A stretch of DNA of 64,000 nucleotides, from NCBI GenBank assembly GCA_963772655.1, contig CAVYYE010000009.1, positions 22,343 through 86,342 on the forward strand, in the 5' to 3' direction. The translations under genes were made by a program, and so were the position numbers. This stretch comes from an uncultured delta proteobacterium (GTDB lineage: Bacteria; Myxococcota_A; Polyangia; Haliangiales; Haliangiaceae). This document shows, piece by piece, positions 1,681 to 63,506 of this stretch. Under the pieces are notes generated by a model, which saw only the letters and a program-made list of their open reading frames with translations, had not been told where the DNA came from and ran no database searches. Position 1 is the first letter of the stretch. Each line of letters begins with the position of its first letter.

Positions 1681-4521
1681 TCAGGCATCGAGCATCGCGA
1701 GCGCCTTGAACACGGCCTCGCGGGTACGGGCGAACCCACGGGTGCGTCGGCTCTCGAGCGCCTTGCGCCCCGCGGATCCCGCTCGCTTGGCGCCGAGCAT
1801 CCCGATCCCGATCGCGGCGTTGACCTGGACGTTCTCCGCGGGACTCTCGATCGCGTCGCACAGGATCTCCTGCGCGTCGGGAAGCGCGTTGATCAGTTCG
1901 AGGATCCGCCGCGCGTGGGTGTCGTCGTCGGTCTCGAGACCCTTCAGCAACGCGGTCAACACCTTCGCCTTGCGAGCGCCGAGCACACCCGCGCACGCCT
2001 TCGCGACCTCGGCATCGCCGCGTAACGCACCGACCAGAAACCCTGCGACCTCGCGAACGACGACATCGCCGAGCTTGTCGAGCGCCCCCGCCGCGGCGAT
2101 CCGCACGCCGGGATCGTCGTCGCGGAGCAGCACGCCGAGTTGCGATGCGGTGTCCGCTGCCGGCGCCCCGACCGCACCGAGCGCCGTGGCCGCGTTGGCA
2201 CGCACGACGGCGCGACCGTCGGTGAGATACGCCGCGAGGGCACCCACCGGCAGATCCTTCGCCTTGTCGCCGAACGCCTCGGAACCGAGGAGTCGGGTCT
2301 CGAAACCATCGACATCGATCGCGGTCGGTCCGGTCGAACGCGGGCCGTCGAGCGTCTCGAGTGCCTGACGCACGGCCTCGCGCGTTCGCTCCCACCCACC
2401 GGTGCGTGCACCCTCGAGCACCTTGCGTCCCTTGCCGACGCGATCCTTGCCGAGCAAGCCGAGGCCGAGTGCCGCGTTGACCTGCACGTTGACCGCCGGC
2501 GACTCGAACGCGTCGACCAGGATCTCCGAGGCGTCGGGCAGCTGGTTGACGACCTCGACGATCCGCTTGCCGTGGCGAGGGTCGTCGGTCTCCAGACCGC
2601 GGACCAGCGCGCCGACCATCTTGCCCTTGCGCGCGGCGAGCAACTTGGCGATCGCCGCGGCAACGCCGTCGTCGTGGTCGCGCAGCGCGCCGACCAGATC
2701 GTCGGCGGTCTCGGCGACCGCAGCATCCCCGATCCGATCGAGCGCGTGCGCCACCGCGAGCCGGACGCGCGCGTCGTCGTCACGTAGACGCACCCCGAGC
2801 GATCGGGCGGCCGCCACGGCGACGCCACCGACCGTCCCGAGCGCGGTCGCCGCGTTCGCACGCACCGCATCGCGCCCGTCGGTGAGGTACGCGATCAGCT
2901 CGTCGACCCCGACCTTGTCGAGGACGGCCTTGTGCTTGTCGATCTCGGCCGCGCTCAACACGCGATCCTCGAAGCCGTCGATCGGGATCGCCTTGGGGCC
3001 GGAGTCGGTCTCGGGCGTGATCATCTCGAGCGCGCGCCGCACGGCCTCTCGGGTCCGCGCGTCACCGCCGGTACGTGCGTCGTGCAACGTGGCGAGCCCC
3101 TCGCCGACCCTGTCGCGCAGCAGGCCGAGGCCGAGCGCGGCGTTGACCTGCACGTTGACCGCCGGGCTCGCGAACGCCTCGACCAGCAACTTGACCGCGT
3201 CGGGCAATTTGCCGATCAGCTCGCCGACGCGCAGGCCGTGCTCCTCGGTGCCGGCATCGAGCCCGTGGATCAGCGCGTCGCGCGCCGACATGCCGAGGCT
3301 GGCGAGCGTCTCGGCCGCCGCCTCCGCGACCTCGGACTCGGCATCACCGAGCGCACCGACCAGATCCGTGGCGGCATTGGCCGCCGAGACGCCGAGCCGG
3401 CCGAGCGCGACCGCGACCTCCCGACGTACCGCCGGGACGCCGTCGCGCAACAGCAGCCCGAGCGCCGCGGCAGCCGCACCGGCGGCGTCACCCTTGATCC
3501 CGAGCGCACGCGCCGCGTTGATCTTGACGTGCGCGCGGCCGTCCTGGAGCGCGCTCGTCATCTGGTCGACGTCGATCGCTCCCTCGTACTCCATCAGCTC
3601 CGACTTCGACAGCTTCCGCGCCTCGAAGTCCGGGATGTTCTTGGGCAGCGTGTCGATCGCCTCGGTCTTCTCGCGCGCGAGCACCGCGAGCATCGCCTGC
3701 TTGGCGGCGGCGCGGATGTCGGGCACCGGGTCGCCCGCCTCGATCGCGGTCAGGCACGCCAGCGCCGGATCCGGATCGAACTTGCCGTGACGTCCGAGGC
3801 CGGCGATCGCGTTGACGCGGATCCGGCTGCGATCGTTCTTGGCCGCTTCGGTCAGAAACGCGATGCCGCGTCGGCCGACCTTGGCCGCCGCGGCGACCAC
3901 CGTCTTGATCGCGAGTGACTCGGGGACGTCGAGGGCCGCGATCAGCTCGCGGTCGCAGGTACCGATCAGCGACGCCAGCGTGCCGACCACGGAGTCGAGG
4001 ACCTCGGGCTGGGCACCGTCGAGCGCCTGCACCAGCTGCGGGATCAGGTCGCGAAGGCGCGACCCGAGCGCACCGATCGCCTCGGCCGCGGCGCCGCCGA
4101 CGTGCGCCTCGCCGTCGCGTACCAGCGTGACCAGCTCGAACGCCGGATGACCGGCGGCGGCGAGCCCGAGCGCCGCGTTCGCGCGCACGATCGCGCGACC
4201 GTCGCGGGCGAGCTCGACCAGCTCGTCGGGATCGAGCTGCGCGCCGAACGGTGCCAGCTCCGCGAGCCTCAGCTTGCGCTCGTCGAGCGGCGGCGGCTTC
4301 GTGCTGGGCGGCTTGTCGGCCTTGTCGGCCTTGTCGACCTTGTCGACCTTGTCGGCCTTGTCGGCCTTGTCGGCCTTGTCGCCCTTGTCGCCACGCGGCT
4401 CGGCCACCTTGGTCGGCTTGCTCGATTCGGCCGCCGGCTCGGCGGGCTTGTCGGCCTTGACCGGATCGGCGGTCCTCGCGCGCTCCGACTTCCTCTCGGA
4501 CTTCTTGTCGTCTCCCGGCAT
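1681..4521 (-). CDS. HEAT/PBS-lyase repeat protein (~946 aa) with an N-terminal (KAD)n low-complexity stretch
   Basis: Repeated 'DxxVRxxAAxALGxxG' HEAT-like units throughout; long ORF; start placed at internal Met (MPGDDKK) at 4519-4521. Confidence 0.65.
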   Translation of the reverse strand: MPGDDKKSERKSERARTADPVKADKPAEPAAESSKPTKVAEPRGDKGDKADKADKADKVDKVDKADKADKPPSTKPPPLDERKLRLAELAPFGAQLDPDELVELARDGRAIVRANAALGLAAAGHPAFELVTLVRDGEAHVGGAAAEAIGALGSRLRDLIPQLVQALDGAQPEVLDSVVGTLASLIGTCDRELIAALDVPESLAIKTVVAAAAKVGRRGIAFLTEAAKNDRSRIRVNAIAGLGRHGKFDPDPALACLTAIEAGDPVPDIRAAAKQAMLAVLAREKTEAIDTLPKNIPDFEARKLSKSELMEYEGAIDVDQMTSALQDGRAHVKINAARALGIKGDAAGAAAAALGLLLRDGVPAVRREVAVALGRLGVSAANAATDLVGALGDAESEVAEAAAETLASLGMSARDALIHGLDAGTEEHGLRVGELIGKLPDAVKLLVEAFASPAVNVQVNAALGLGLLRDRVGEGLATLHDARTGGDARTREAVRRALEMITPETDSGPKAIPIDGFEDRVLSAAEIDKHKAVLDKVGVDELIAYLTDGRDAVRANAATALGTVGGVAVAAARSLGVRLRDDDARVRLAVAHALDRIGDAAVAETADDLVGALRDHDDGVAAAIAKLLAARKGKMVGALVRGLETDDPRHGKRIVEVVNQLPDASEILVDAFESPAVNVQVNAALGLGLLGKDRVGKGRKVLEGARTGGWERTREAVRQALETLDGPRSTGPTAIDVDGFETRLLGSEAFGDKAKDLPVGALAAYLTDGRAVVRANAATALGAVGAPAADTASQLGVLLRDDDPGVRIAAAGALDKLGDVVVREVAGFLVGALRGDAEVAKACAGVLGARKAKVLTALLKGLETDDDTHARRILELINALPDAQEILCDAIESPAENVQVNAAIGIGMLGAKRAGSAGRKALESRRTRGFARTREAVFKALAMLDA
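4311..4392. repeat. 9-bp tandem repeat (GCCTTGTCG)n, about 9 copies, encoding the (KAD/KVD)n tract of the HEAT-repeat protein
   Basis: Direct reading of sequence 4311-4392. Confidence 0.8.
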
Positions 4522-4604
4522 CCGCGATCCAGGTACCACGTTTGCCGCGGACGATTTCGGGTCGTGCGATAGTGAGATCGCCCGTGCGGCCCATCGAGTT
4601 CTAC

Positions 4605-6101
4605 ATGCGCGTGATCGAGAAGGCCGGTGCGTATGGCGCTGTCCTCGCATCCGGCCAGGCCGTCACGTTGCGATTTCCCACCGGGGACCGTCGGTCGACG
4701 CAGATCACCCCGCACGAGCAGCTGGTCGACCTCGTGCGCGACGCGGCCCCACCGATGGTGCTCGACCAGATCGATCGGAATCACCCCTCGCGATTCGAGC
4801 TCGACTCCAACGGCCAGCACTACGCGATCGATATCCAGCCGCAGCGCGGGTTCTGGCAGGTCAACATCGAGGTCGCCGCGGCGCCGGCCGTGACCACCCC
4901 CACCGCTCCCGCTCCCACCCCCACCCCCGTCCCCGAGCCGGTCGCGCGCACCGCCTCGCAGCACCACTCGCGGCCCGTACGCGCGACGCAGGGCACTCCG
5001 AGCGGCGCGATGCCGATGCCCAGGCCGCGCCAGCAGACCGGGGCCGTTCCGATGTCGGCGACGCGCTCCGACTCGGCCGCGGTGCAACGCTCGCGTCGCT
5101 CGTCGGAGGTGCGCGACCCATCGGAGCGTATCCCGCTCGCGCGCCAGGACGACTCGGCTGTCGTGCCGGCGCCGATCCCGGACGACGAAGCGCCCCTGAT
5201 CATCATCGAGCGCGGTCAGTACGAGGCGCCGACCGGCGTCCAGACCTCGAGTGGCAGCTCGCTCCTCGACCTCCTCACCGCCAACGCGCGCGCGGCGAAC
5301 GCCTCCGACGTCTACCTGATCGCCGGTCACGCGCCGTACATGAAGGTCAACGGCCAGCTGATGTCGACCACGGTTCGCTCGCCGATCGACGGCGAGCAAC
5401 TGTCCCGCGAGATCGGCATCGTCGCACCACCCGAGGTTCGCAATGCCTGGGTCGAGCGAGGGATCGCCGGGTTCACCTACGGCGACGGCATCGGGCGCGT
5501 GCGCGTGCGCTTGACGCGCGATCACCGCGGCCCGTCGGCGGCCTTCCGGTTGTTGCTCGGGGAACCGCCGACGCTCGACCAGCTCCAGCTCTACGAGATC
5601 GACAACCTGCTCGAGGATCGCGGGCTGATCCTGGTCGGGGGTCCGTCCGGATCGGGCAAGACCACGACCCTCGCCGCGATGATCCGCGCGCTCGCCGAAG
5701 ATCGCCGCAGCGTGGTGGTACTCGACGACGCGATCGAGATCGTTCATGTCAGTCCGTGGATCAGCCAGCGGCAGATCGGCATGCACGTCCCCGACGTGCT
5801 GTCCGGCGTCGAGGCCGCGATGGCCGAGGGCGTCGACGCGATCGTGATCGGTGTGGCGCGCGACGCCGACCGCGCCCGCGCCGTGATCGAAGCCGCGACC
5901 GGCGGGCACCTCGTGATCACGACCGTGGTGTCACCGGTCGCCGCGGTTGCCGCGGATCGGCTGATCGACAAGCTCCCGGAGTCGGCGCGCGCGGGGGGCC
6001 GCGAGGTGATCGACCACATGCTCCTGGGAGCCGTCGCTCCGCTCGTCAGCCACTCGGGCGAGCGCTCGTTCGAGGTCGTGTTCGGCCGTCGCCGCACCTG
6101 A
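4605..6101 (+). CDS. PilT-family (type IV pilus retraction/twitching) ATPase with a ~200-aa N-terminal extension and Pro-rich linker
   Basis: Walker A 'LVGGPSGSGKTTTLAAMI', Asp box 'VVVLDDAIE', 'SQRQIG' and 'GHLVITTV' match PilT/PilU signatures. ATG at 4605 is in frame with ORF 4542..6101. Confidence 0.7.
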   Translation: MRVIEKAGAYGAVLASGQAVTLRFPTGDRRSTQITPHEQLVDLVRDAAPPMVLDQIDRNHPSRFELDSNGQHYAIDIQPQRGFWQVNIEVAAAPAVTTPTAPAPTPTPVPEPVARTASQHHSRPVRATQGTPSGAMPMPRPRQQTGAVPMSATRSDSAAVQRSRRSSEVRDPSERIPLARQDDSAVVPAPIPDDEAPLIIIERGQYEAPTGVQTSSGSSLLDLLTANARAANASDVYLIAGHAPYMKVNGQLMSTTVRSPIDGEQLSREIGIVAPPEVRNAWVERGIAGFTYGDGIGRVRVRLTRDHRGPSAAFRLLLGEPPTLDQLQLYEIDNLLEDRGLILVGGPSGSGKTTTLAAMIRALAEDRRSVVVLDDAIEIVHVSPWISQRQIGMHVPDVLSGVEAAMAEGVDAIVIGVARDADRARAVIEAATGGHLVITTVVSPVAAVAADRLIDKLPESARAGGREVIDHMLLGAVAPLVSHSGERSFEVVFGRRRT

Positions 6102-56116: not shown

Positions 56117-58165
56117 CTAGTCGCCGCCCTTGGCCGCCGTTTCGGTCACGGTCACGGTCAACGTCGCCGATGGCGTGTCCACGACCGTCTCGGTGATCCG
56201 CGCGTCGCCGTCGTCGATCACCTTGACGACCGGCGTCCCGATCGGTGGGTCGCCCTCGGCCTCGTCGGCCTCCTCGGCTTCGATCTCGATCACGGTCTCG
56301 ATCTCGGGCGCCGTCGGTGCCCGCGCCGGAGGGGGCTTGTTCGGCTGGGTCTTGCGCATCGCCGGCTCCAGCACGACGACCTCTTCGTCGACAGCCGTCA
56401 TCACGGCCGCCTCGAGCGGAGACGGCGCGCGCGACGACAGGATCAGAGGGACCCGCTCGCTCGGCCTGGTGGGCGACCGCGTCGGCTTTCCACTCGACAC
56501 CTCGTCGAAGCGCTCGTCGAGCTCGGCCGCGACCGGACTCGACGCACGCTCGCGGCGCACGTCGGTCGGCTCGTCGGTCTCATCGGTCGGCTCGTCGGTC
56601 GGCTCGTCGGTCGGCTCCCCGATCGTGATCTCGATGATCGGCTCGGAATCGGCGCGGCGCGGAATCACTCGCTGGATCGTGGGTTCGGAGTCGATGCGGG
56701 GAGCCGGCTCCGGTACCGACGCGGCGGCGGCGTCGGACACCGGCTCGGGAATCGACCGGGCGTCGGACACAGGCTCGGGGGCCGACGGGTCCGGCCGTGG
56801 CCGGATCTTCGTCGGTCCGGAGTCGACGCTCGAGAACTCATCGGGCGGCGGCGGCGCGTCGGCGGCGAGGATCGGTGGCTCGGGTTTTTCGTACGCCGAC
56901 TCGATCGCCGACCGGGCTTCCTCGTCGTTGGCGGTGTCGAGGCCGCGGAACGCGCCCACGCTCGCACGCTCGGCGACCATCGGCGTGAGCCGCTCGAGGA
57001 GCACCTCGCCGAGCTCGGAGTCGTCGTCGCACAGCTCCCGGAAGTCGTCGGCACGGAGCCCGAGCGCGCGCACGTGGCCACGCGCGACCGCGAGCCCGTC
57101 GCGATCGGGAAGCGGGCTCCCGGCGACCAGCGCCTCCGGGTACAGCAGCGTGCCCGGCAGCTGGAGAACGCCGTCGAGGGTCACGTTGCCCTCGAGCACG
57201 ACCCACGCGACCCGATCGCCGAGCGTGGCCGCGGGGATGCGCTCGTCCTCGGCGTAGTCGCGCGGGATCGCGATCCGGAGTGCGCGCAGGCGTTGCTGCG
57301 AGCTCACCTTCTCCGACCACAGCTCGCAGCTCGCGATCACCTCGTCGTCGCGCCGGATCGCCTCGGCGGGCCGCGGGGTCTCGCCGGCCTCGAGCACCCG
57401 CACGACGATCGCCGTCGCGTTGTCGGCACCACCGCGCTCGAGCGCGAGCTCGATCAACCGCTGGGCCGCGCGCGCCGGACTCGGCTGCTGCGTCAGCACC
57501 TCGCCGACCTCGTTCTCGGGCACGTACTCGCTGATCCCGTCGCTGCACAGCATGAAGCGATCGCCGTCGGCGAGCGGCACGACGAACGTCGACACCTTGC
57601 ACGCCTCGCCGATGCCGAGCGCGTTGGTCAGCATGCTCTTGAACCGCGAGCCCTCGCCGGACTGATCGACGTCGATCCCGGCGGCGAGCAACCGGGCGAG
57701 CAGCGTGTGATCCTCGGTCAGCTGCATCGCGATGCCATCGCGCACCATGTACGCGCGCGAGTCACCGGCGTGCGCGAACACCAGCTCGTTGCCGATCACC
57801 ATCCCGCCGACCAGCGTGGTGCCCATCCCCTTCTTGGAGATGTCGCGGCGAGCCTCGGCGAGGATCTCGCCGTGAGCCGCGCTCGCACCATCGCGCAGGG
57901 CGGCCAGGAGCTTGTGCTTGGTGTCGGGATCCCCCTGCGCGAGCCAGGCGTCGATCTGGAGTTGCGTGTCCTCGTCCGACCAGCGTTCACGAATCGTCTG
58001 GATCGCGATCGAGCTAGCGACCTCCCCCGCCGCATGTCCCCCCATGCCGTCGCACACCAGGAACATGCCGAGCTCGGCATCGAAGAAGTGCGAGTCTTCG
58101 TTGTGCTCGCGCACGTTGCCGACGTGCGTCGCCGCAGCGCCGACGATCGAGGCTCGGCCCGCCAC
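56117..58165 (-). CDS. PP2C-family Ser/Thr protein phosphatase with cNMP-binding-like middle domain and Pro/Glu-rich repetitive C-terminal tail
   Basis: 'FLVCDGMGGHAAGEVAS', 'DSRAYMV', 'LCSDGIS', 'GGADNATAIVV' PP2C motifs; (PTDE)n repeats. Confidence 0.75.
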   Translation of the reverse strand: MAGRASIVGAAATHVGNVREHNEDSHFFDAELGMFLVCDGMGGHAAGEVASSIAIQTIRERWSDEDTQLQIDAWLAQGDPDTKHKLLAALRDGASAAHGEILAEARRDISKKGMGTTLVGGMVIGNELVFAHAGDSRAYMVRDGIAMQLTEDHTLLARLLAAGIDVDQSGEGSRFKSMLTNALGIGEACKVSTFVVPLADGDRFMLCSDGISEYVPENEVGEVLTQQPSPARAAQRLIELALERGGADNATAIVVRVLEAGETPRPAEAIRRDDEVIASCELWSEKVSSQQRLRALRIAIPRDYAEDERIPAATLGDRVAWVVLEGNVTLDGVLQLPGTLLYPEALVAGSPLPDRDGLAVARGHVRALGLRADDFRELCDDDSELGEVLLERLTPMVAERASVGAFRGLDTANDEEARSAIESAYEKPEPPILAADAPPPPDEFSSVDSGPTKIRPRPDPSAPEPVSDARSIPEPVSDAAAASVPEPAPRIDSEPTIQRVIPRRADSEPIIEITIGEPTDEPTDEPTDETDEPTDVRRERASSPVAAELDERFDEVSSGKPTRSPTRPSERVPLILSSRAPSPLEAAVMTAVDEEVVVLEPAMRKTQPNKPPPARAPTAPEIETVIEIEAEEADEAEGDPPIGTPVVKVIDDGDARITETVVDTPSATLTVTVTETAAKGGD
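56560..56625. repeat. 12-bp tandem repeat (GGCTCGTCGGTC)n inside the PP2C gene, encoding (PTDE)n
   Basis: Direct reading of sequence. Confidence 0.7.
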
Positions 58166-59048: not shown

Positions 59049-60257
<1,209 letters not shown>

Positions 60258-60285
60258 CCCCGCGCACCCCGACGCCAGGTCGAGG

Positions 60286-60836
60286 GGGTATGCTGCCCCT
60301 GGGGCGAGCTTGCGAGCCCGTTCCGTACAGGCGAGCGCTTCGCGAGCCGATCATCGACGCCTGCACATCCCGGTGCGGAGCTCGCGACGCAACGGGTATG
60401 CTGCACCTAGGGCGAGCTTGCGAGCCCGTTCCGTACAGGCGAGCGCTTCGCGAGCCGATCATCGACGCCTGCACATCCCGGTGCGGAGCTCGCGACGCAA
60501 CGGGTATGCTGCACCTAGGGCGAGCTTGCGAGCCCGTTCCGTACAGGCGAGCGCTTCGCGAGCCGATCATCGACGCCTGCACATCCCGGTGCGGAGCTCG
60601 CGACGCAACGGGTATGCTGCACCTAGGGCGAGCTTGCGAGCCCGTTCCGTACAGGCGAGCGCTTCGCGAGCCGATCATCGACGCCTGCACATCCCGGTGC
60701 GGAGCTCGCGACGCAACGGGTATGCTGCACCTAGGGCGAGCTTGCGAGCCCGTTCCGTACAGGCGAGCGCTTCGCGAGCCGATCATCGACGCCTGCACAT
60801 CCCGGTGCGGAGCTCGCGACGCAACGGGTATGCTGC
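60286..60836. repeat. Non-coding tandem repeat, 108-bp unit x ~5.1 copies, nearly identical
   Basis: Unit start 'GGGTATGCTGC' recurs at 60286, 60394, 60502, 60610, 60718 and 60826. Each unit contains the inverted repeat TCGCGAGC...GCTCGCGA. No frame of the unit gives a protein-like translation. Confidence 0.85.
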
Positions 60837-60840
60837 AGGC

Positions 60841-61296
60841 GTGCCCGAGCTGCGCAACGTCATCGTGTTCACGATCGGCGCCGGGCGCTATGCCGTCGAG
60901 CTGCGGTGGGTGCGCGAGGTCGTCAGCCTCGGGTTCGTGACCAACGTGCCGACTGCCCCCGAGGTCCTCGGCGGTGTGTGCAACCTTCACGGCACGATCC
61001 TCCCGGTGCTCGACGTCAGCGTGTTGCTCGGCGGCAAGCCCGGGCTTCCCGCGCGCCAGGGTGACGGTGCACTGGTGCTCGAGATCGAGGGGCTGGTGTG
61101 CGCGCTGCGCGTCGACCAGATCGATCACGTCGCGTCGCTCTCCGAGACCACGCCCGACAAGGATGGCTCGGGCACCGCGGTGATCGACACCTCCGGTCGC
61201 CCTCTCTCGCTGCTCGATCCCACCAAGCTGGTCCGCCACGCGGTCGACATGGTGGCCGCGTCGGCACCGAACGATCGGGCGGACGCCGGAACCTGA
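60841..61296 (+). CDS. cheW: CheW-like chemotaxis coupling protein
   Basis: 'VIVFTIGAGRYAVELRWVREVV' and 'GGVCNLHGTILPVLDVSVLLG' CheW-domain blocks; GTG at 60841, immediately after the repeat array. Confidence 0.7.
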   Translation: MPELRNVIVFTIGAGRYAVELRWVREVVSLGFVTNVPTAPEVLGGVCNLHGTILPVLDVSVLLGGKPGLPARQGDGALVLEIEGLVCALRVDQIDHVASLSETTPDKDGSGTAVIDTSGRPLSLLDPTKLVRHAVDMVAASAPNDRADAGT

Positions 61297-63506
61297 TGGG
61301 CGACGAGCTCGACTTCGATCCCGAGGAGCTCGCGATGCTCCGCCAGCTGTTTCGCAGCGAGGCCGAGGAATCGCTCGAGGCCGTGACCGAACGCGTGCTG
61401 GCGAGTGGTTCCGCGAAGCCATCCGCCGAGGCCTTGACCGAGATGATGCGGGTCACCCACACGCTCAAGGGGGCCGCGGGCACCGTGGGCCTCCCCGCGA
61501 TCGTGGACCTGTCGCACCGCCTCGAGAGCGTGCTCGCTTCGCTCGCGCGCGACGCCACGCCGTGGATGCCGACCACGGCCGACCAGATCGTCGAGATCAC
61601 CGACGGCATGCGCGGTTATCTCGACCGCGTCGGCGGCGATCCCGCGGCCGCCGAGGCGCTGGCCAAGACGATCCGGCGCCAGATCGATCGCATCGCGCAC
61701 CCGGATCAGCGACGCGGCGCGAACGAGTCGATCCCGCCGCCCGCCGAACCACCCCCGGAGTCGGTGCTCGAGCCGTCTCAGCCCGACACCCCGGAGCCCA
61801 AGACCTGGCTCCGCATCGACCCCGACCGCATCGACGATCTGATGTCGAGTGCCGGCGAGCTGCTGTTCGATCGCACGCGCATCGAGCGGCGCGTGCAGCT
61901 GTTGCGCACGCTCGCGCGCGACCTCGCACGCACCCGCCAGACGTTGCACGACACGCTCGGCACCGCCGAGGACCAAAACGTTCCGACGCGATCGACGCTG
62001 CTGGCCGTCGGCGAGTCCGAGCGCGAGCTGGCGAGCCAGGCGGTGCTGCTGTCGCAGACCACCGCGGCCCTGCTCGACGAGATCGAGGCGCTGCGTCGCA
62101 CGATCGGCGAGCTCCAGCGCGGGCTGACGCGGATCCGCATGGAGAGCGCGAAGAGCCTGATGACGCACGCCGCGCGCACGCTGCGCGCGCTGCGTCGCGC
62201 CACCGGCATCCACGTCGAGTTGCGCACGATCGGCGAGGAGACCGAGTTCGACAAGGCGGTCGCCGAGCAGCTGATCGACCCGATCACGCAGCTGCTCCGC
62301 AACGCGGTGGCCCACGCCGTCGAGCCAGCCGAGGAGCGTCGCGCTCTCGGCAAGCCGCCGATCGCGACGATCACGATCCGCGCCCGCCAGGAGGGCAACC
62401 TGCTGGTGCTCGAGCTGTCCGACGACGGCCGCGGCATCGACACCGCCGCGGTGCGCGAGCGTCTGATCGCGAGTGGCCAGTGGTCGGCCGCCCGCGCGCA
62501 GCTCGCCGACGATGCCGAGATTCTCGACGCGCTGCTCGGAAGCGGCGTGTCGGTGCGCGACGACACCGACGAGCTCGCCGGCCGCGGCATCGGCGTCGGG
62601 CTCGTGCGGCAGACCGTGGCGAGGCTCGGCGGGGAGGTCAAGGTGGCGTCGAGCCCGCACCGCGGCACGACGTTCAGCCTCCGGCTCCCGCTGTCGACCG
62701 CGCTCGCGCAGGCGATGCTGTTCAAGGTCGGCGGGCAGGTCTACGCGATCCCCAACGTCCACGTCGTCGACACCACCCAGGTCGAGCCCGGCGTCACCAC
62801 CACGACGGTGACGCGCCGGGATGGCACGCCCGATCGCGAGCCATTGCCGGTGCTCCGGCTCGAGGAGCTGCTCGGCCACGGCCCGGGCACGGAACGCCGG
62901 CCCGGCGTCGTCGTCTCGTTCGCCGGCAAGTCGCTGGTGTGTACCGTCGACAAGCTCGTCGGGCCGCGCGAGATCATCGTCAAGCCGCTCGGCGAGATGC
63001 TCGCCCCGCTGACGCTGTACGCGGGGGCCACGATCAGTGGCTCCGGCAAGGTCCAGCTGATCCTCGATCCCGCCCAGCTCGTGCGCCGCGCTCACCCCGA
63101 CGCGCCCGTCGAGATGATCGACGACATCGCATCGGCGCCGGTCGTGCTCGCCGGCCGCGCGCTGGTGGTCGACGACTCGCGCGCGATCCGCGAGGCCATG
63201 ACCTCGATGCTCGGACGCGAGGGCTGGATCGTCGATGTCGCCGAGGATGGTGCGCGCGCGCTCCAGATGACCCGCCAGGTCCGCTACGACCTCGTCGTCA
63301 CCGATCTCGAGATGCCCGAGCTCGATGGCTTCGAGCTGATCTCGCGGCTGCGCAAGGACGTCCGCTTCAAGACCACGCCGATCGTGATCATCACGTCGCG
63401 CGCGAACCCCGAGCACCGCCGGCGCGCCAAGGACCTCGAGGTCCGCGCACTGGTCGCCAAGCCGATCACGCGTCGCAAGCTGCTCGAGGCCCTGGCGACC
63501 CGCTAG
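61296..63506 (+). CDS. cheA: Chemotaxis histidine kinase CheA with C-terminal receiver domain (CheA-CheY hybrid)
   Basis: HPt 'MRVTHTLKGAAGTVGL'; HATPase 'ELSDDGRGID', 'GRGIGVGLV'; CheW-like domain; receiver 'ALVVDDSRAIRE...DLVVTDLEMPELDG...AKP'. Confidence 0.85.
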   Translation: MGDELDFDPEELAMLRQLFRSEAEESLEAVTERVLASGSAKPSAEALTEMMRVTHTLKGAAGTVGLPAIVDLSHRLESVLASLARDATPWMPTTADQIVEITDGMRGYLDRVGGDPAAAEALAKTIRRQIDRIAHPDQRRGANESIPPPAEPPPESVLEPSQPDTPEPKTWLRIDPDRIDDLMSSAGELLFDRTRIERRVQLLRTLARDLARTRQTLHDTLGTAEDQNVPTRSTLLAVGESERELASQAVLLSQTTAALLDEIEALRRTIGELQRGLTRIRMESAKSLMTHAARTLRALRRATGIHVELRTIGEETEFDKAVAEQLIDPITQLLRNAVAHAVEPAEERRALGKPPIATITIRARQEGNLLVLELSDDGRGIDTAAVRERLIASGQWSAARAQLADDAEILDALLGSGVSVRDDTDELAGRGIGVGLVRQTVARLGGEVKVASSPHRGTTFSLRLPLSTALAQAMLFKVGGQVYAIPNVHVVDTTQVEPGVTTTTVTRRDGTPDREPLPVLRLEELLGHGPGTERRPGVVVSFAGKSLVCTVDKLVGPREIIVKPLGEMLAPLTLYAGATISGSGKVQLILDPAQLVRRAHPDAPVEMIDDIASAPVVLAGRALVVDDSRAIREAMTSMLGREGWIVDVAEDGARALQMTRQVRYDLVVTDLEMPELDGFELISRLRKDVRFKTTPIVIITSRANPEHRRRAKDLEVRALVAKPITRRKLLEALATR

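Follow-up and report, generated by a model that had tools for sequence, protein, structure and literature searches.

A probable REP/MIRU-like hairpin element, recently inserted and tandemly amplified between clpX and cheW in an uncultured myxobacterium

Examination of a 64,000-nucleotide stretch of DNA from an uncultured delta proteobacterium (GenBank assembly GCA_963772655.1, contig CAVYYE010000009.1, positions 22,343 to 86,342), hereafter called the window, revealed an array of five 108-bp tandem repeats in the spacer between the genes clpX and cheW. The clpX gene (59049..60257, plus strand) codes for a protein of 402 amino acids with the Pfam domains zf-C4_ClpX, AAA_2 and ClpB_D2-small, and its TAG stop codon lies at 60255-60257. 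The cheW gene on the other side of the array (60841..61296, plus strand) codes for 151 amino acids with the Pfam domain CheW (PF01584), begins with GTG without a Shine-Dalgarno sequence, and its product is identical to a database protein (P0001). A cheA-type kinase gene (61296..63506, plus strand; Hpt, HATPase, CheW and receiver domains) follows, its start overlapping the cheW stop codon, and a gene for an OmpR-family regulator lies just upstream of clpX. The order PP2C - GlnR-type regulator - clpX - cheW - cheA/Y - RNase R is conserved at orthologous loci, the clpX gene order being kept at the four loci L001, L003, L005 and L007. The CheW homologues place the window in the Myxococcota, near metagenome-assembled genomes (MAGs) of Kofleriaceae. 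The array is probably a recently inserted and then amplified hairpin element, variable in copy number and resembling repetitive extragenic palindromes (REPs) and mycobacterial interspersed repetitive units (MIRUs), which belongs to a family found in Kofleriaceae and is not a control device specific to the che genes.

Tandem Repeats Finder delimited the array at 60286-60837, with a period of 108, 5.1 copies, 99% matches, 0 indels and a score of 1090. Unit 1 (60286..60393, plus strand) meets the native upstream DNA at the left junction and is followed by units 2-5 (60394..60825, plus strand; starts at 60394, 60502, 60610 and 60718, 108 bp each). By direct comparison units 2-5 are 100% identical, and unit 1 differs from them at two positions, with C instead of A at position 12 and G instead of A at position 16. 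A partial sixth copy of 11-12 nt (60826-60836/7) reads GGGTATGCTGC(A) and ends 4 nt before the cheW GTG. The 11-mer GGGTATGCTGC has six exact copies in the window, all of them in the array and 0 elsewhere. Between the clpX stop codon and the first 11-mer lies a native spacer of 28 nt (60258..60285). Two 45-mers taken from the unit gave 5 matches each in the window, against 0 expected from 100 shuffles. Searches of the 64 kb with these 45-mers allowing 3 mismatches, with a hidden Markov model (HMM) of the family described below and with an unfiltered covariance model found no additional copies of the unit. Each unit, read directly, contains the motif GCGAGC four times in direct and once in inverted orientation. 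Its 3' module (60463..60501 in unit 2, plus strand), CGACGCCTGCACATCCCGGTGCGGAGCTCGCGACGCAAC, is specific to this subtype and is not present in other family members; it comprises a small hairpin in the minimum-free-energy fold and the arm GCTCGCGA of a longer-range inverted repeat. An earlier note on this DNA, made from the letters alone, had described five near-perfect repeats abutting cheW, each with an 8-bp inverted repeat. Both features are confirmed, the former by Tandem Repeats Finder and by comparison of the copies, the latter as the arms GCTTCGCGAGC and GCTCGCGACGC, 32 nt apart. The note had also dismissed the long open reading frame (ORF) that runs through the repeats, and this judgement agrees with the flat GC content by codon position in every frame of the repeat (0.64-0.70), as against a GC3 of 0.89 in clpX and cheW.

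By its composition the array is non-coding. Three long ORFs cross it, as artefacts of the high G+C content. That the repeats encode protein, either as an N-terminal extension of CheW (ORF 60196-61296, in frame) or as a 415-amino acid ORF on the minus strand, has next to no probability in our view. Three of the six frames are indeed open across the array and the unit equals 36 codons, but no frame carries a codon-position GC signal, family members differ by indels whose lengths cannot be divided by three, a chimeric query of peptides from six frames returned 0 matches among 5.8 billion protein sequences, and the database CheW is annotated from the GTG at 60841.

The history of the array can be read from two short ENA metagenome contigs, L032 and L033, which carry the second CheW protein of the 90% cluster that contains the window CheW. 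L033 carries an empty site, in which the clpX TAG is followed by 29 nt, a single GGGTATGCTGC, AGGC and the cheW GTG. L032 has the same flank and one unit: GGGTATGCTGC, 97 nt, a second GGGTATGCTGC, AGGC and the GTG. The 97-nt insert of L032 differs by 1 base from the window unit, and position 12 in unit 1 of the window is C as in this single-copy allele. The flanks of L032 and L033 are 99.8% identical to each other and ~98.5% identical to the window outside a divergent patch of ~50 nt in clpX at the contig end; the native spacer aligns in all three, with 1 substitution and 1 indel. The anatomy of the two contigs resolves the 108-bp unit into the 97-bp insert and one 11-bp direct repeat of target sequence, and the array reiterates this structure. 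The terminal 11-mer (60826..60836, plus strand) is accordingly the right-hand member of the direct repeat of the insertion, and the sole copy in the empty-site allele. Copy number at this one site is thus 0 in L033, at least 1 in L032 and 5.1 in the window, between flanks that are 98.5-99.8% identical. The comparison between strains proposed in the earlier note therefore supports its suspicion of a recent expansion, since of two near-identical strains one has an empty site and the other a single unit there. That units 2-5 do not differ at any base likewise shows the expansion to be recent. Divergence within the insert (1 difference in 97 nt, against ~1.4% in the flanks) is not informative on its age relative to the flanks.

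In the divergent patch, positions 1-50 of L032 and L033 depart sharply from the window (59812-59865) inside clpX, where the window has DAMPASTATTAGFGAGQ; the other ~390 nt are ~98.7% identical. The patch may be either a hypervariable loop of ClpX or a recombination boundary.

Metagenome assembly raises the possibility that the five-fold repetition is an artefact, produced by a loop in the assembly graph that was traversed too often. In favour of this are the 100% identity of four units, the nature of the source, a contig of 327,671 bp assembled from a metagenome which provides the only count of five copies, and the single unit in the sole other assembly with the element at the same site. With perfect tandem repeats, however, the usual error of assemblers is collapse and not expansion; unit 1 differs from the others at two positions, so that at least two distinct units must be real, and the element with both of its junctions is seen independently in the L032 assembly. 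We consider such an artefact unlikely.

The three alleles group as (window,(L032,L033)), and the element is present in the window and in L032 and not in L033. Either L033 has lost it precisely, by recombination between the 11-mers, or the site may have been hit more than once. The internal junctions have A at position 12, the base that also comes after the right-hand 11-mer, and the left junction has C, which would mean that the founding duplication was joined just outside the 11-mer or that one substitution came before the expansion. More distant orthologous loci (L001, L003, L007, L035, L036 and L039) do not have the element, and in these relatives the gap between clpX and cheW holds ~40-150 nt of unrelated sequence, or inserted genes. 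The clpX-cheW junction is a hotspot where gene content changes, with BNR-repeat, Cu2_monoox_C, RCC1-like and hypothetical genes inserted in different relatives (L003, L005, L035 and L036).

Copies of the element are also found at unrelated loci. A 22-mer from the core of the unit matches three Kofleriaceae MAGs in a species-representative genome collection, and an 18-mer matches six more metagenome contigs, with a similarity that extends well beyond the seed to a whole core of 58 nt; the other seed matches have unrelated flanks and are attributed to chance. The homologous cores lie in L008-L010, L012, L021, L024, L026-L028 and L032, that is at nine loci besides the clpX-cheW site, a number counted across different genomes. 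The census was made by exact-seed searches, which bias the alignment toward the conserved linker and the 5' arm of the second hairpin. A collection of plasmids gave no match to the unit, and the matches in viral contigs were only chance 18-mers in a low-GC phage.

The neighbouring genes are unrelated between the loci of the family, and the position of the element is nonetheless regular. An upstream ORF is readable at seven of the nine other loci (L008, L009, L010, L021, L024, L026 and L028), and at all seven the element begins 0-7 nt after the stop codon of this co-oriented gene; with clpX in the window, co-orientation with the upstream gene reaches 8/8. The element lies between convergent genes at L009, L010, L024, L027 and L028, and between unidirectional genes in the window. 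At five loci the convergent gene ends just past a third hairpin, which is locus-specific. Positions 2393-2510 of L012 and 569-680 of L028 carry the same subtype of ~115 nt, with a GTCT insertion after the first hairpin and an identical third hairpin, amid DNA that is unrelated on either side; the first hairpin of L028 has its 5' arm eroded at the TAG of the upstream gene. The sharing of this subtype within unrelated DNA indicates that the element has dispersed as a unit. An independent tandem array with the same core occupies positions 1-208 of L027. It has at least 2.1 copies with a period of 97 and 98% identity; the start of the contig truncates it, and it adjoins the stop codon of a convergent ORF of 249 amino acids. 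Tandem reiteration is thus a property of the family and not of the che locus. No target-site duplications were found at the other family copies, and the inspected ORFs adjoining the element included no transposase. The earlier note had named a MIRU-like mobile repeat among its possibilities, and the occurrence of the core at unrelated loci in other Kofleriaceae genomes, together with presence and absence at one site, agrees with this. It had also foreseen that the unit might prove a common repeat scattered over many intergenic regions and hence not particular to che; the element is dispersed and not che-specific, but its copies are few.

An exact 22-nt match to the core was also observed in a Paraburkholderia MAG (L011, 1742-1763), 57 nt downstream of an IS110-family transposase gene (725-1684), and was examined by means of ORFs, Rfam, BLAST against plasmids and the family covariance model. 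In IS1111-type elements, this is the position that encodes a guide RNA. A dispersed Burkholderia repeat adjoins the match and corresponds to Rfam Bp1_684 (45.7 bits). The chance expectation for a 22-mer of such composition in 596 Gb was estimated at roughly 0.1-0.4. With the family model the match reaches only 16 bits, which is noise, and an origin of the element as an IS110/IS1111 end or guide RNA was rejected.

Site-specific or homology-guided integration, with the 11-mer as an att-like shared core and the array arising from repeated integration or integration of a multimer, would offer another route to these alleles in place of a transposition with staggered cuts. It would accommodate the strain tree, which calls for a precise loss if the element did not insert twice at an identical position, and the independent array of L027; moreover, the target GGGTATGCTGCAGGCGTG is similar to what stands after the core elsewhere (GGAGGCTGCAGACGTAG, GGAGGGCGCAGGCGTAG and GGAGCGTGCAGCCGTAG). 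A simple exchange inside the core is a poor fit, however, to C at position 12 of the left junction and A at the internal ones, no recombinase gene was found near the array among the window ORFs and Pfam assignments inspected, and a circle of 108 bp is implausible as double-stranded DNA. We regard such integration as a doubtful explanation, if a less remote one than an assembly artefact.

The conserved core (60410..60467 in unit 2, plus strand; 60302-60359, 60518-60575, 60626-60683 and 60734-60791 in the other units) is composed of a first hairpin H1 (60410-60427, 18 nt, GGGCGAGCTTGCGAGCCC), a linker of 10 nt (60428-60437, GTTCCGTACA, in RNA GUUCCGUACA), a second hairpin H2 (60438-60456, 19 nt, GGCGAGCGCTTCGCGAGCC), and GATCAT (GAUCAU in RNA) with the next 5 nt (60457-60467), which form its 3' end. 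H1 can be written GGGC GA G CUUG C GA GCCC and H2 GGC GA GCG CUU CGC GA GCC, both with tandem G.A mismatches between outer and inner Watson-Crick pairs. The covariance model detected only the five core sites in the window, at 87-91 bits. Four sequences of the family have GGCC...GGCC as the H1 stem, L008 has a plain GGGC-GCAA-GCCC hairpin, and in L010 the two G.A pairs are replaced by C-G and G-C, giving a perfect 7-bp stem. One compensatory change from G-C to C-G is found in H1 among the family cores; the H2 stem is near-invariant and its loop varies. The four direct GCGAGC copies of the core (60410-60456 and family) make it possible to draw either two hairpins with tandem G.A pairs or one long hairpin, and the subtypes with GGCC...GGCC favour the long one (z -2.3 to -2.75).

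Folding of the window unit was no better than that of dinucleotide shuffles on either strand (z +0.27 and -0.75), the RNAalifold consensus of the family cores was weak and without covariation bonus, and Rfam gave nothing relevant, either for the region when scanned permissively or for the entire window at the gathering threshold. These results speak against the proposal of the earlier note that the array forms five stem-loops in the 5' leader of cheW, and the stem it had chosen is not the conserved stem of the element. The proposal is further unsupported because cheW appears to have no leader, its putative promoter lying inside the last partial unit.

The hexamer TATGCT at 60829..60834 (plus strand), 6 nt upstream of the GTG at 60841, is read here as the -10 box of a leaderless cheW mRNA, with a transcription start predicted from its position. 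In other high-G+C bacteria, a -10-like TANNNT at such a distance from a start codon without Shine-Dalgarno sequence is the signature of leaderless mRNAs. The motif TA(T/C)GCT stands 6-7 nt before a cheW GTG devoid of Shine-Dalgarno sequence at seven loci (window/L033, 60829-60843 in the window; L001, 5998-6016; L003, 5986-6003; L007, 4130-4147; L035 and L036, ~2985-3003; L039, ~630-651), the DNA upstream being otherwise unrelated. At three of the seven the upstream gene is divergent, so that a promoter must lie there. At L005, where cheW follows another gene after 9 nt, GGAG and an ATG take the place of the motif. The cheW gene of this clade thus appears to be leaderless; RNA-seq papers concerned at least in part with leaderless mRNAs exist (e.g. 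PMC4007540, PMC3898074). Two observations were made beside this. The JGI annotation of L001 places the cheW start at an ATG within the hexamer, but in most relatives that ATG is not in frame. At L039, a hexanucleotide microsatellite (GTTTAC)n at 608-645 runs into the -10-like TACGCT of the cheW promoter region, and the core promoter of cheW seems to be prone to repeats in more than one lineage.

Every unit has a further copy of TATGCT at its start (60289, 60397, 60505, 60613 and 60721). The DNA upstream of the cheW-proximal copy is the 3' end of the element itself, and the hexamers of units 2-5 share at least 97 nt of identical upstream DNA with it. Because their context exactly equals that of the cheW-proximal copy, the four hexamers at internal junctions are potential promoters, and RNA initiated from them would, we infer, have its 5' end at the first hairpin of the unit that follows. 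Scans with promoter and terminator consensus sequences called no sigma-70-like promoter, no -35 box and no intrinsic terminator in the array.

This arrangement could be taken as a set of five small-RNA genes, in which each TATGCT fires a transcript that starts 6-8 nt downstream, at the first hairpin, and yields sibling small RNAs or one long repetitive RNA. The hexamer does lie 7-8 nt before the first base of H1 in every unit, the core is strongly conserved, and if the cheW promoter works the internal ones, with their identical upstream DNA, should work too. At the other loci, though, no promoter-like hexamer precedes the element, which follows a stop codon and would be part of a 3' untranslated region (UTR), and the unit contains neither a terminator-like site nor a match to a -35 box. 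An array of small-RNA genes accordingly seems quite improbable.

A cis-regulatory device particular to che is less probable still. Such a device would be a structured 5' leader of the cheW-cheA transcript or an array of sites bound by a regulator such as the GlnR/OmpR-type response regulator encoded nearby; the array abuts cheW, every unit repeats GCGAGC in both orientations and the OmpR-family gene lies close by. The empty-site allele largely refutes it, the element being absent from a strain that is 99.8% identical, and it is absent as well from all the more distant orthologous cheW loci, which also makes the repeated che-specific regulator-binding sites suggested in the earlier note unlikely. 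The same core stands at unrelated genes elsewhere, the fold is no better than shuffles and without an Rfam match, and cheW appears to have a leaderless transcript of its own that begins within the final partial unit. Taken together, these points leave a che-specific device very unlikely. A che leader RNA or riboswitch, as a class, was rejected on the absence from all orthologous cheW loci, the z values and the Rfam searches given above.

The preferred explanation, a recently inserted and amplified REP/MIRU-like element, supposes three steps. In the first, which the filled and empty alleles display, a 97-bp element entered the short clpX-cheW spacer and left the 11-bp GGGTATGCTGC on both sides. 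In the second, suggested by the anatomy of the array, misalignment at the 11-mers may have produced a duplication, and unequal recombination or replication slippage between the 108-bp units may then have raised it to five identical units; the same repeats would permit contraction, down to the empty site. The third step rests on the comparison of cheW loci: the duplicated 11-mer appears to carry the -10 box of cheW, TATGCT, and the cheW-proximal copy leaves intact both the box and the 6 nt that separate it from the GTG. Tolerance of the insertion would thereby be explained. Each internal unit would then present a spare -10 box followed by the hairpins of the element. As elsewhere the element directly follows the stop codon of a co-oriented gene, it is probably transcribed as a hairpin module of the 3' UTR, and by analogy with what has been proposed for REPs such a module probably acts as an mRNA-end stabiliser or terminator. 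In the window, the clpX mRNA would have five such modules at its 3' end, and these could shield cheW from clpX read-through. That near-identical strains carry empty, single-copy and five-copy alleles points to a neutral or mildly selected polymorphism, and we regard the array as mostly neutral or mildly modulatory rather than as a dedicated che regulator.

Several results weigh against this explanation. The element does not carry the GTAG/CGTC tag of REPs; H1 is preceded by CTAG (window, L027 and L028), TAA, ATAG, TGA or TCA and H2 by GTACA, and CTAG and GTAC resemble GTAG but fall outside the known degenerate forms of the REP family. A flanking duplication of 11 bp is unexpected under the RAYT (Y1 transposase)/IS200 model. 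Terminal inverted repeats are not above chance. Abundance per genome looks low compared with classical REPs, since the exact 22-mer occurs once in a Kofleriaceae contig of 6.26 Mb and neither the family HMM nor the covariance model found further cores in ~100 kb of related loci. L032 is possibly a short-read metagenome assembly and could hold a collapsed array, hence its count of at least 1. A crossover strictly inside the 11-mer predicts a base other than the A found at position 12, so that an extra substitution or an off-register join is needed. An alternative thermodynamic fold makes the core a single long hairpin with the linker GUUCCGUACA as its loop, and structural support is thin, with one covarying pair, an invariant H2 and most members folding no better than shuffles.

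In a further-reaching form of the explanation, a REP-type element would have been caught in the act of moving with an 11-bp target duplication and without terminal inverted repeats, the array being at the same time a tandem multiplication of promoters. This combination is improbable. If true, it would imply a mobilisation route other than RAYT/IS200, such as homology-guided or template-switch insertion beside a mimic of the third hairpin, and copy number would tune the expression of chemotaxis genes or a repeated structured RNA would be fired.

These data document, in an uncultured family of myxobacteria, a group of small intergenic elements with structure that has apparently not been described before, with one copy whose full history can be followed from the empty site through insertion with an 11-bp flanking repeat to tandem expansion. 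The locus is a ready-made variable number tandem repeat (VNTR) marker for these strains, and the three long ORFs crossing the array are a warning for annotation, being spurious. Relevance for chemotaxis is small unless the array is shown to change cheW-cheA expression. Two other repeats in the window lie within coding sequences. The 9-bp repeat CTTGTCGGC (4312-4390, 8.8 copies) makes up a (KAD/KVD)n run near the N-terminus of a repeat-rich protein of 989 amino acids (1681-4650, minus strand), and 12/21-bp repeats at 56548-56617 give a PP2C phosphatase (56117-58165, minus strand) a C-terminal tail with an acidic EPTD repeat.

Several known classes of repeat could be set aside. A type III toxin-antitoxin (ToxI-like) array was rejected as there is no toxin gene, CRISPR as there are no spacers, an integron attC site as the R''/R' motifs are absent, and a sigma-54 promoter as the GG-N10-GC spacing does not fit. 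The enterobacterial ERIC/IRU sequences are low-copy, transcribed, imperfect palindromes whose sequence is highly conserved and whose locations vary between species, as is apparently the case for the present element. They consist of a single palindrome of ~127 bp, are not typically tandem and bear no sequence relation to it.

Miniature transposable elements with inverted repeats (MITEs) offer a further comparison, since they too are ~100 bp long and non-autonomous, are flanked by a direct repeat of the target and show presence/absence polymorphism. A target-site duplication together with an empty site is found here, with one 11-mer in L033 and two around 97 bp in L032. A classical MITE was nevertheless rejected for want of terminal inverted repeats, the best match over all boundaries being 8/14, a value reached by 53% of shuffled units. 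The element differs from MITEs also in that only the central 58 nt are common to the family, the 3' part being modular.

Resemblance is greater to REPs and to the bacterial interspersed mosaic elements (BIMEs) built from them. A survey of REPs (Di Nocera et al. 2013; PMC3733652) deals with GTAG- or CGTC-tagged palindromes that follow ORFs and are placed between genes of unidirectional or convergent orientation. Their termini supply TAG stop codons, their stems contain G.A mismatches, and they form head-to-tail dimers, which in REP/BIME clusters are reiterated in tandem with flanking DNA (PMC3733652). The element shares the short, G+C-rich, imperfect palindromes (18-19 nt) with G.A mismatches in the stem, the location downstream of ORFs with a 5' end that is often at the stop codon or supplies it, the head-to-tail dimers, the tandem clusters of dimer plus flanking DNA and the variation between strains. 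Its position is extragenic and downstream of ORFs, as in REPs, and H1 (18 nt) and H2 (19 nt) give modest support to the palindromic stem-loop of 20-40 bp that characterises them. In contrast to REPs, the 10-nt linker and the second hairpin are near-invariant across genomes and the apparent copy number is low. Whether REPs form de novo today, and in which manner, is an open question in the REP literature (PMC3733652), and a clean pair of filled and empty sites can constrain the mechanism by which REP-type elements form.

In behaviour the array can be likened to the MIRU-VNTR loci of the Mycobacterium tuberculosis complex, with units of 50-110 bp that are intergenic, oriented with the flanking genes, placed between co-directional signalling genes and variable in tandem copy number between close strains. 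In the senX3-regX3 spacer, which holds an array of 77/53-bp MIRUs, there is promoter activity directed at the downstream gene (PMC4213456). Small ORFs coupled to the flanking genes are a further characteristic of MIRUs. Both a strain-variable array and a unit dispersed over several intergenic loci in the orientation of the genes are found here. The comparison concerns behaviour alone, the sequence and the host, a myxobacterium, being unrelated. What distinguishes the present locus from the MIRU-VNTR record is its documented empty site, along with the 11-bp repeat at the flanks. Membership in a classical family is not established, and we call the element a new family of a known kind, working like a REP/BIME cluster or a MIRU-VNTR.

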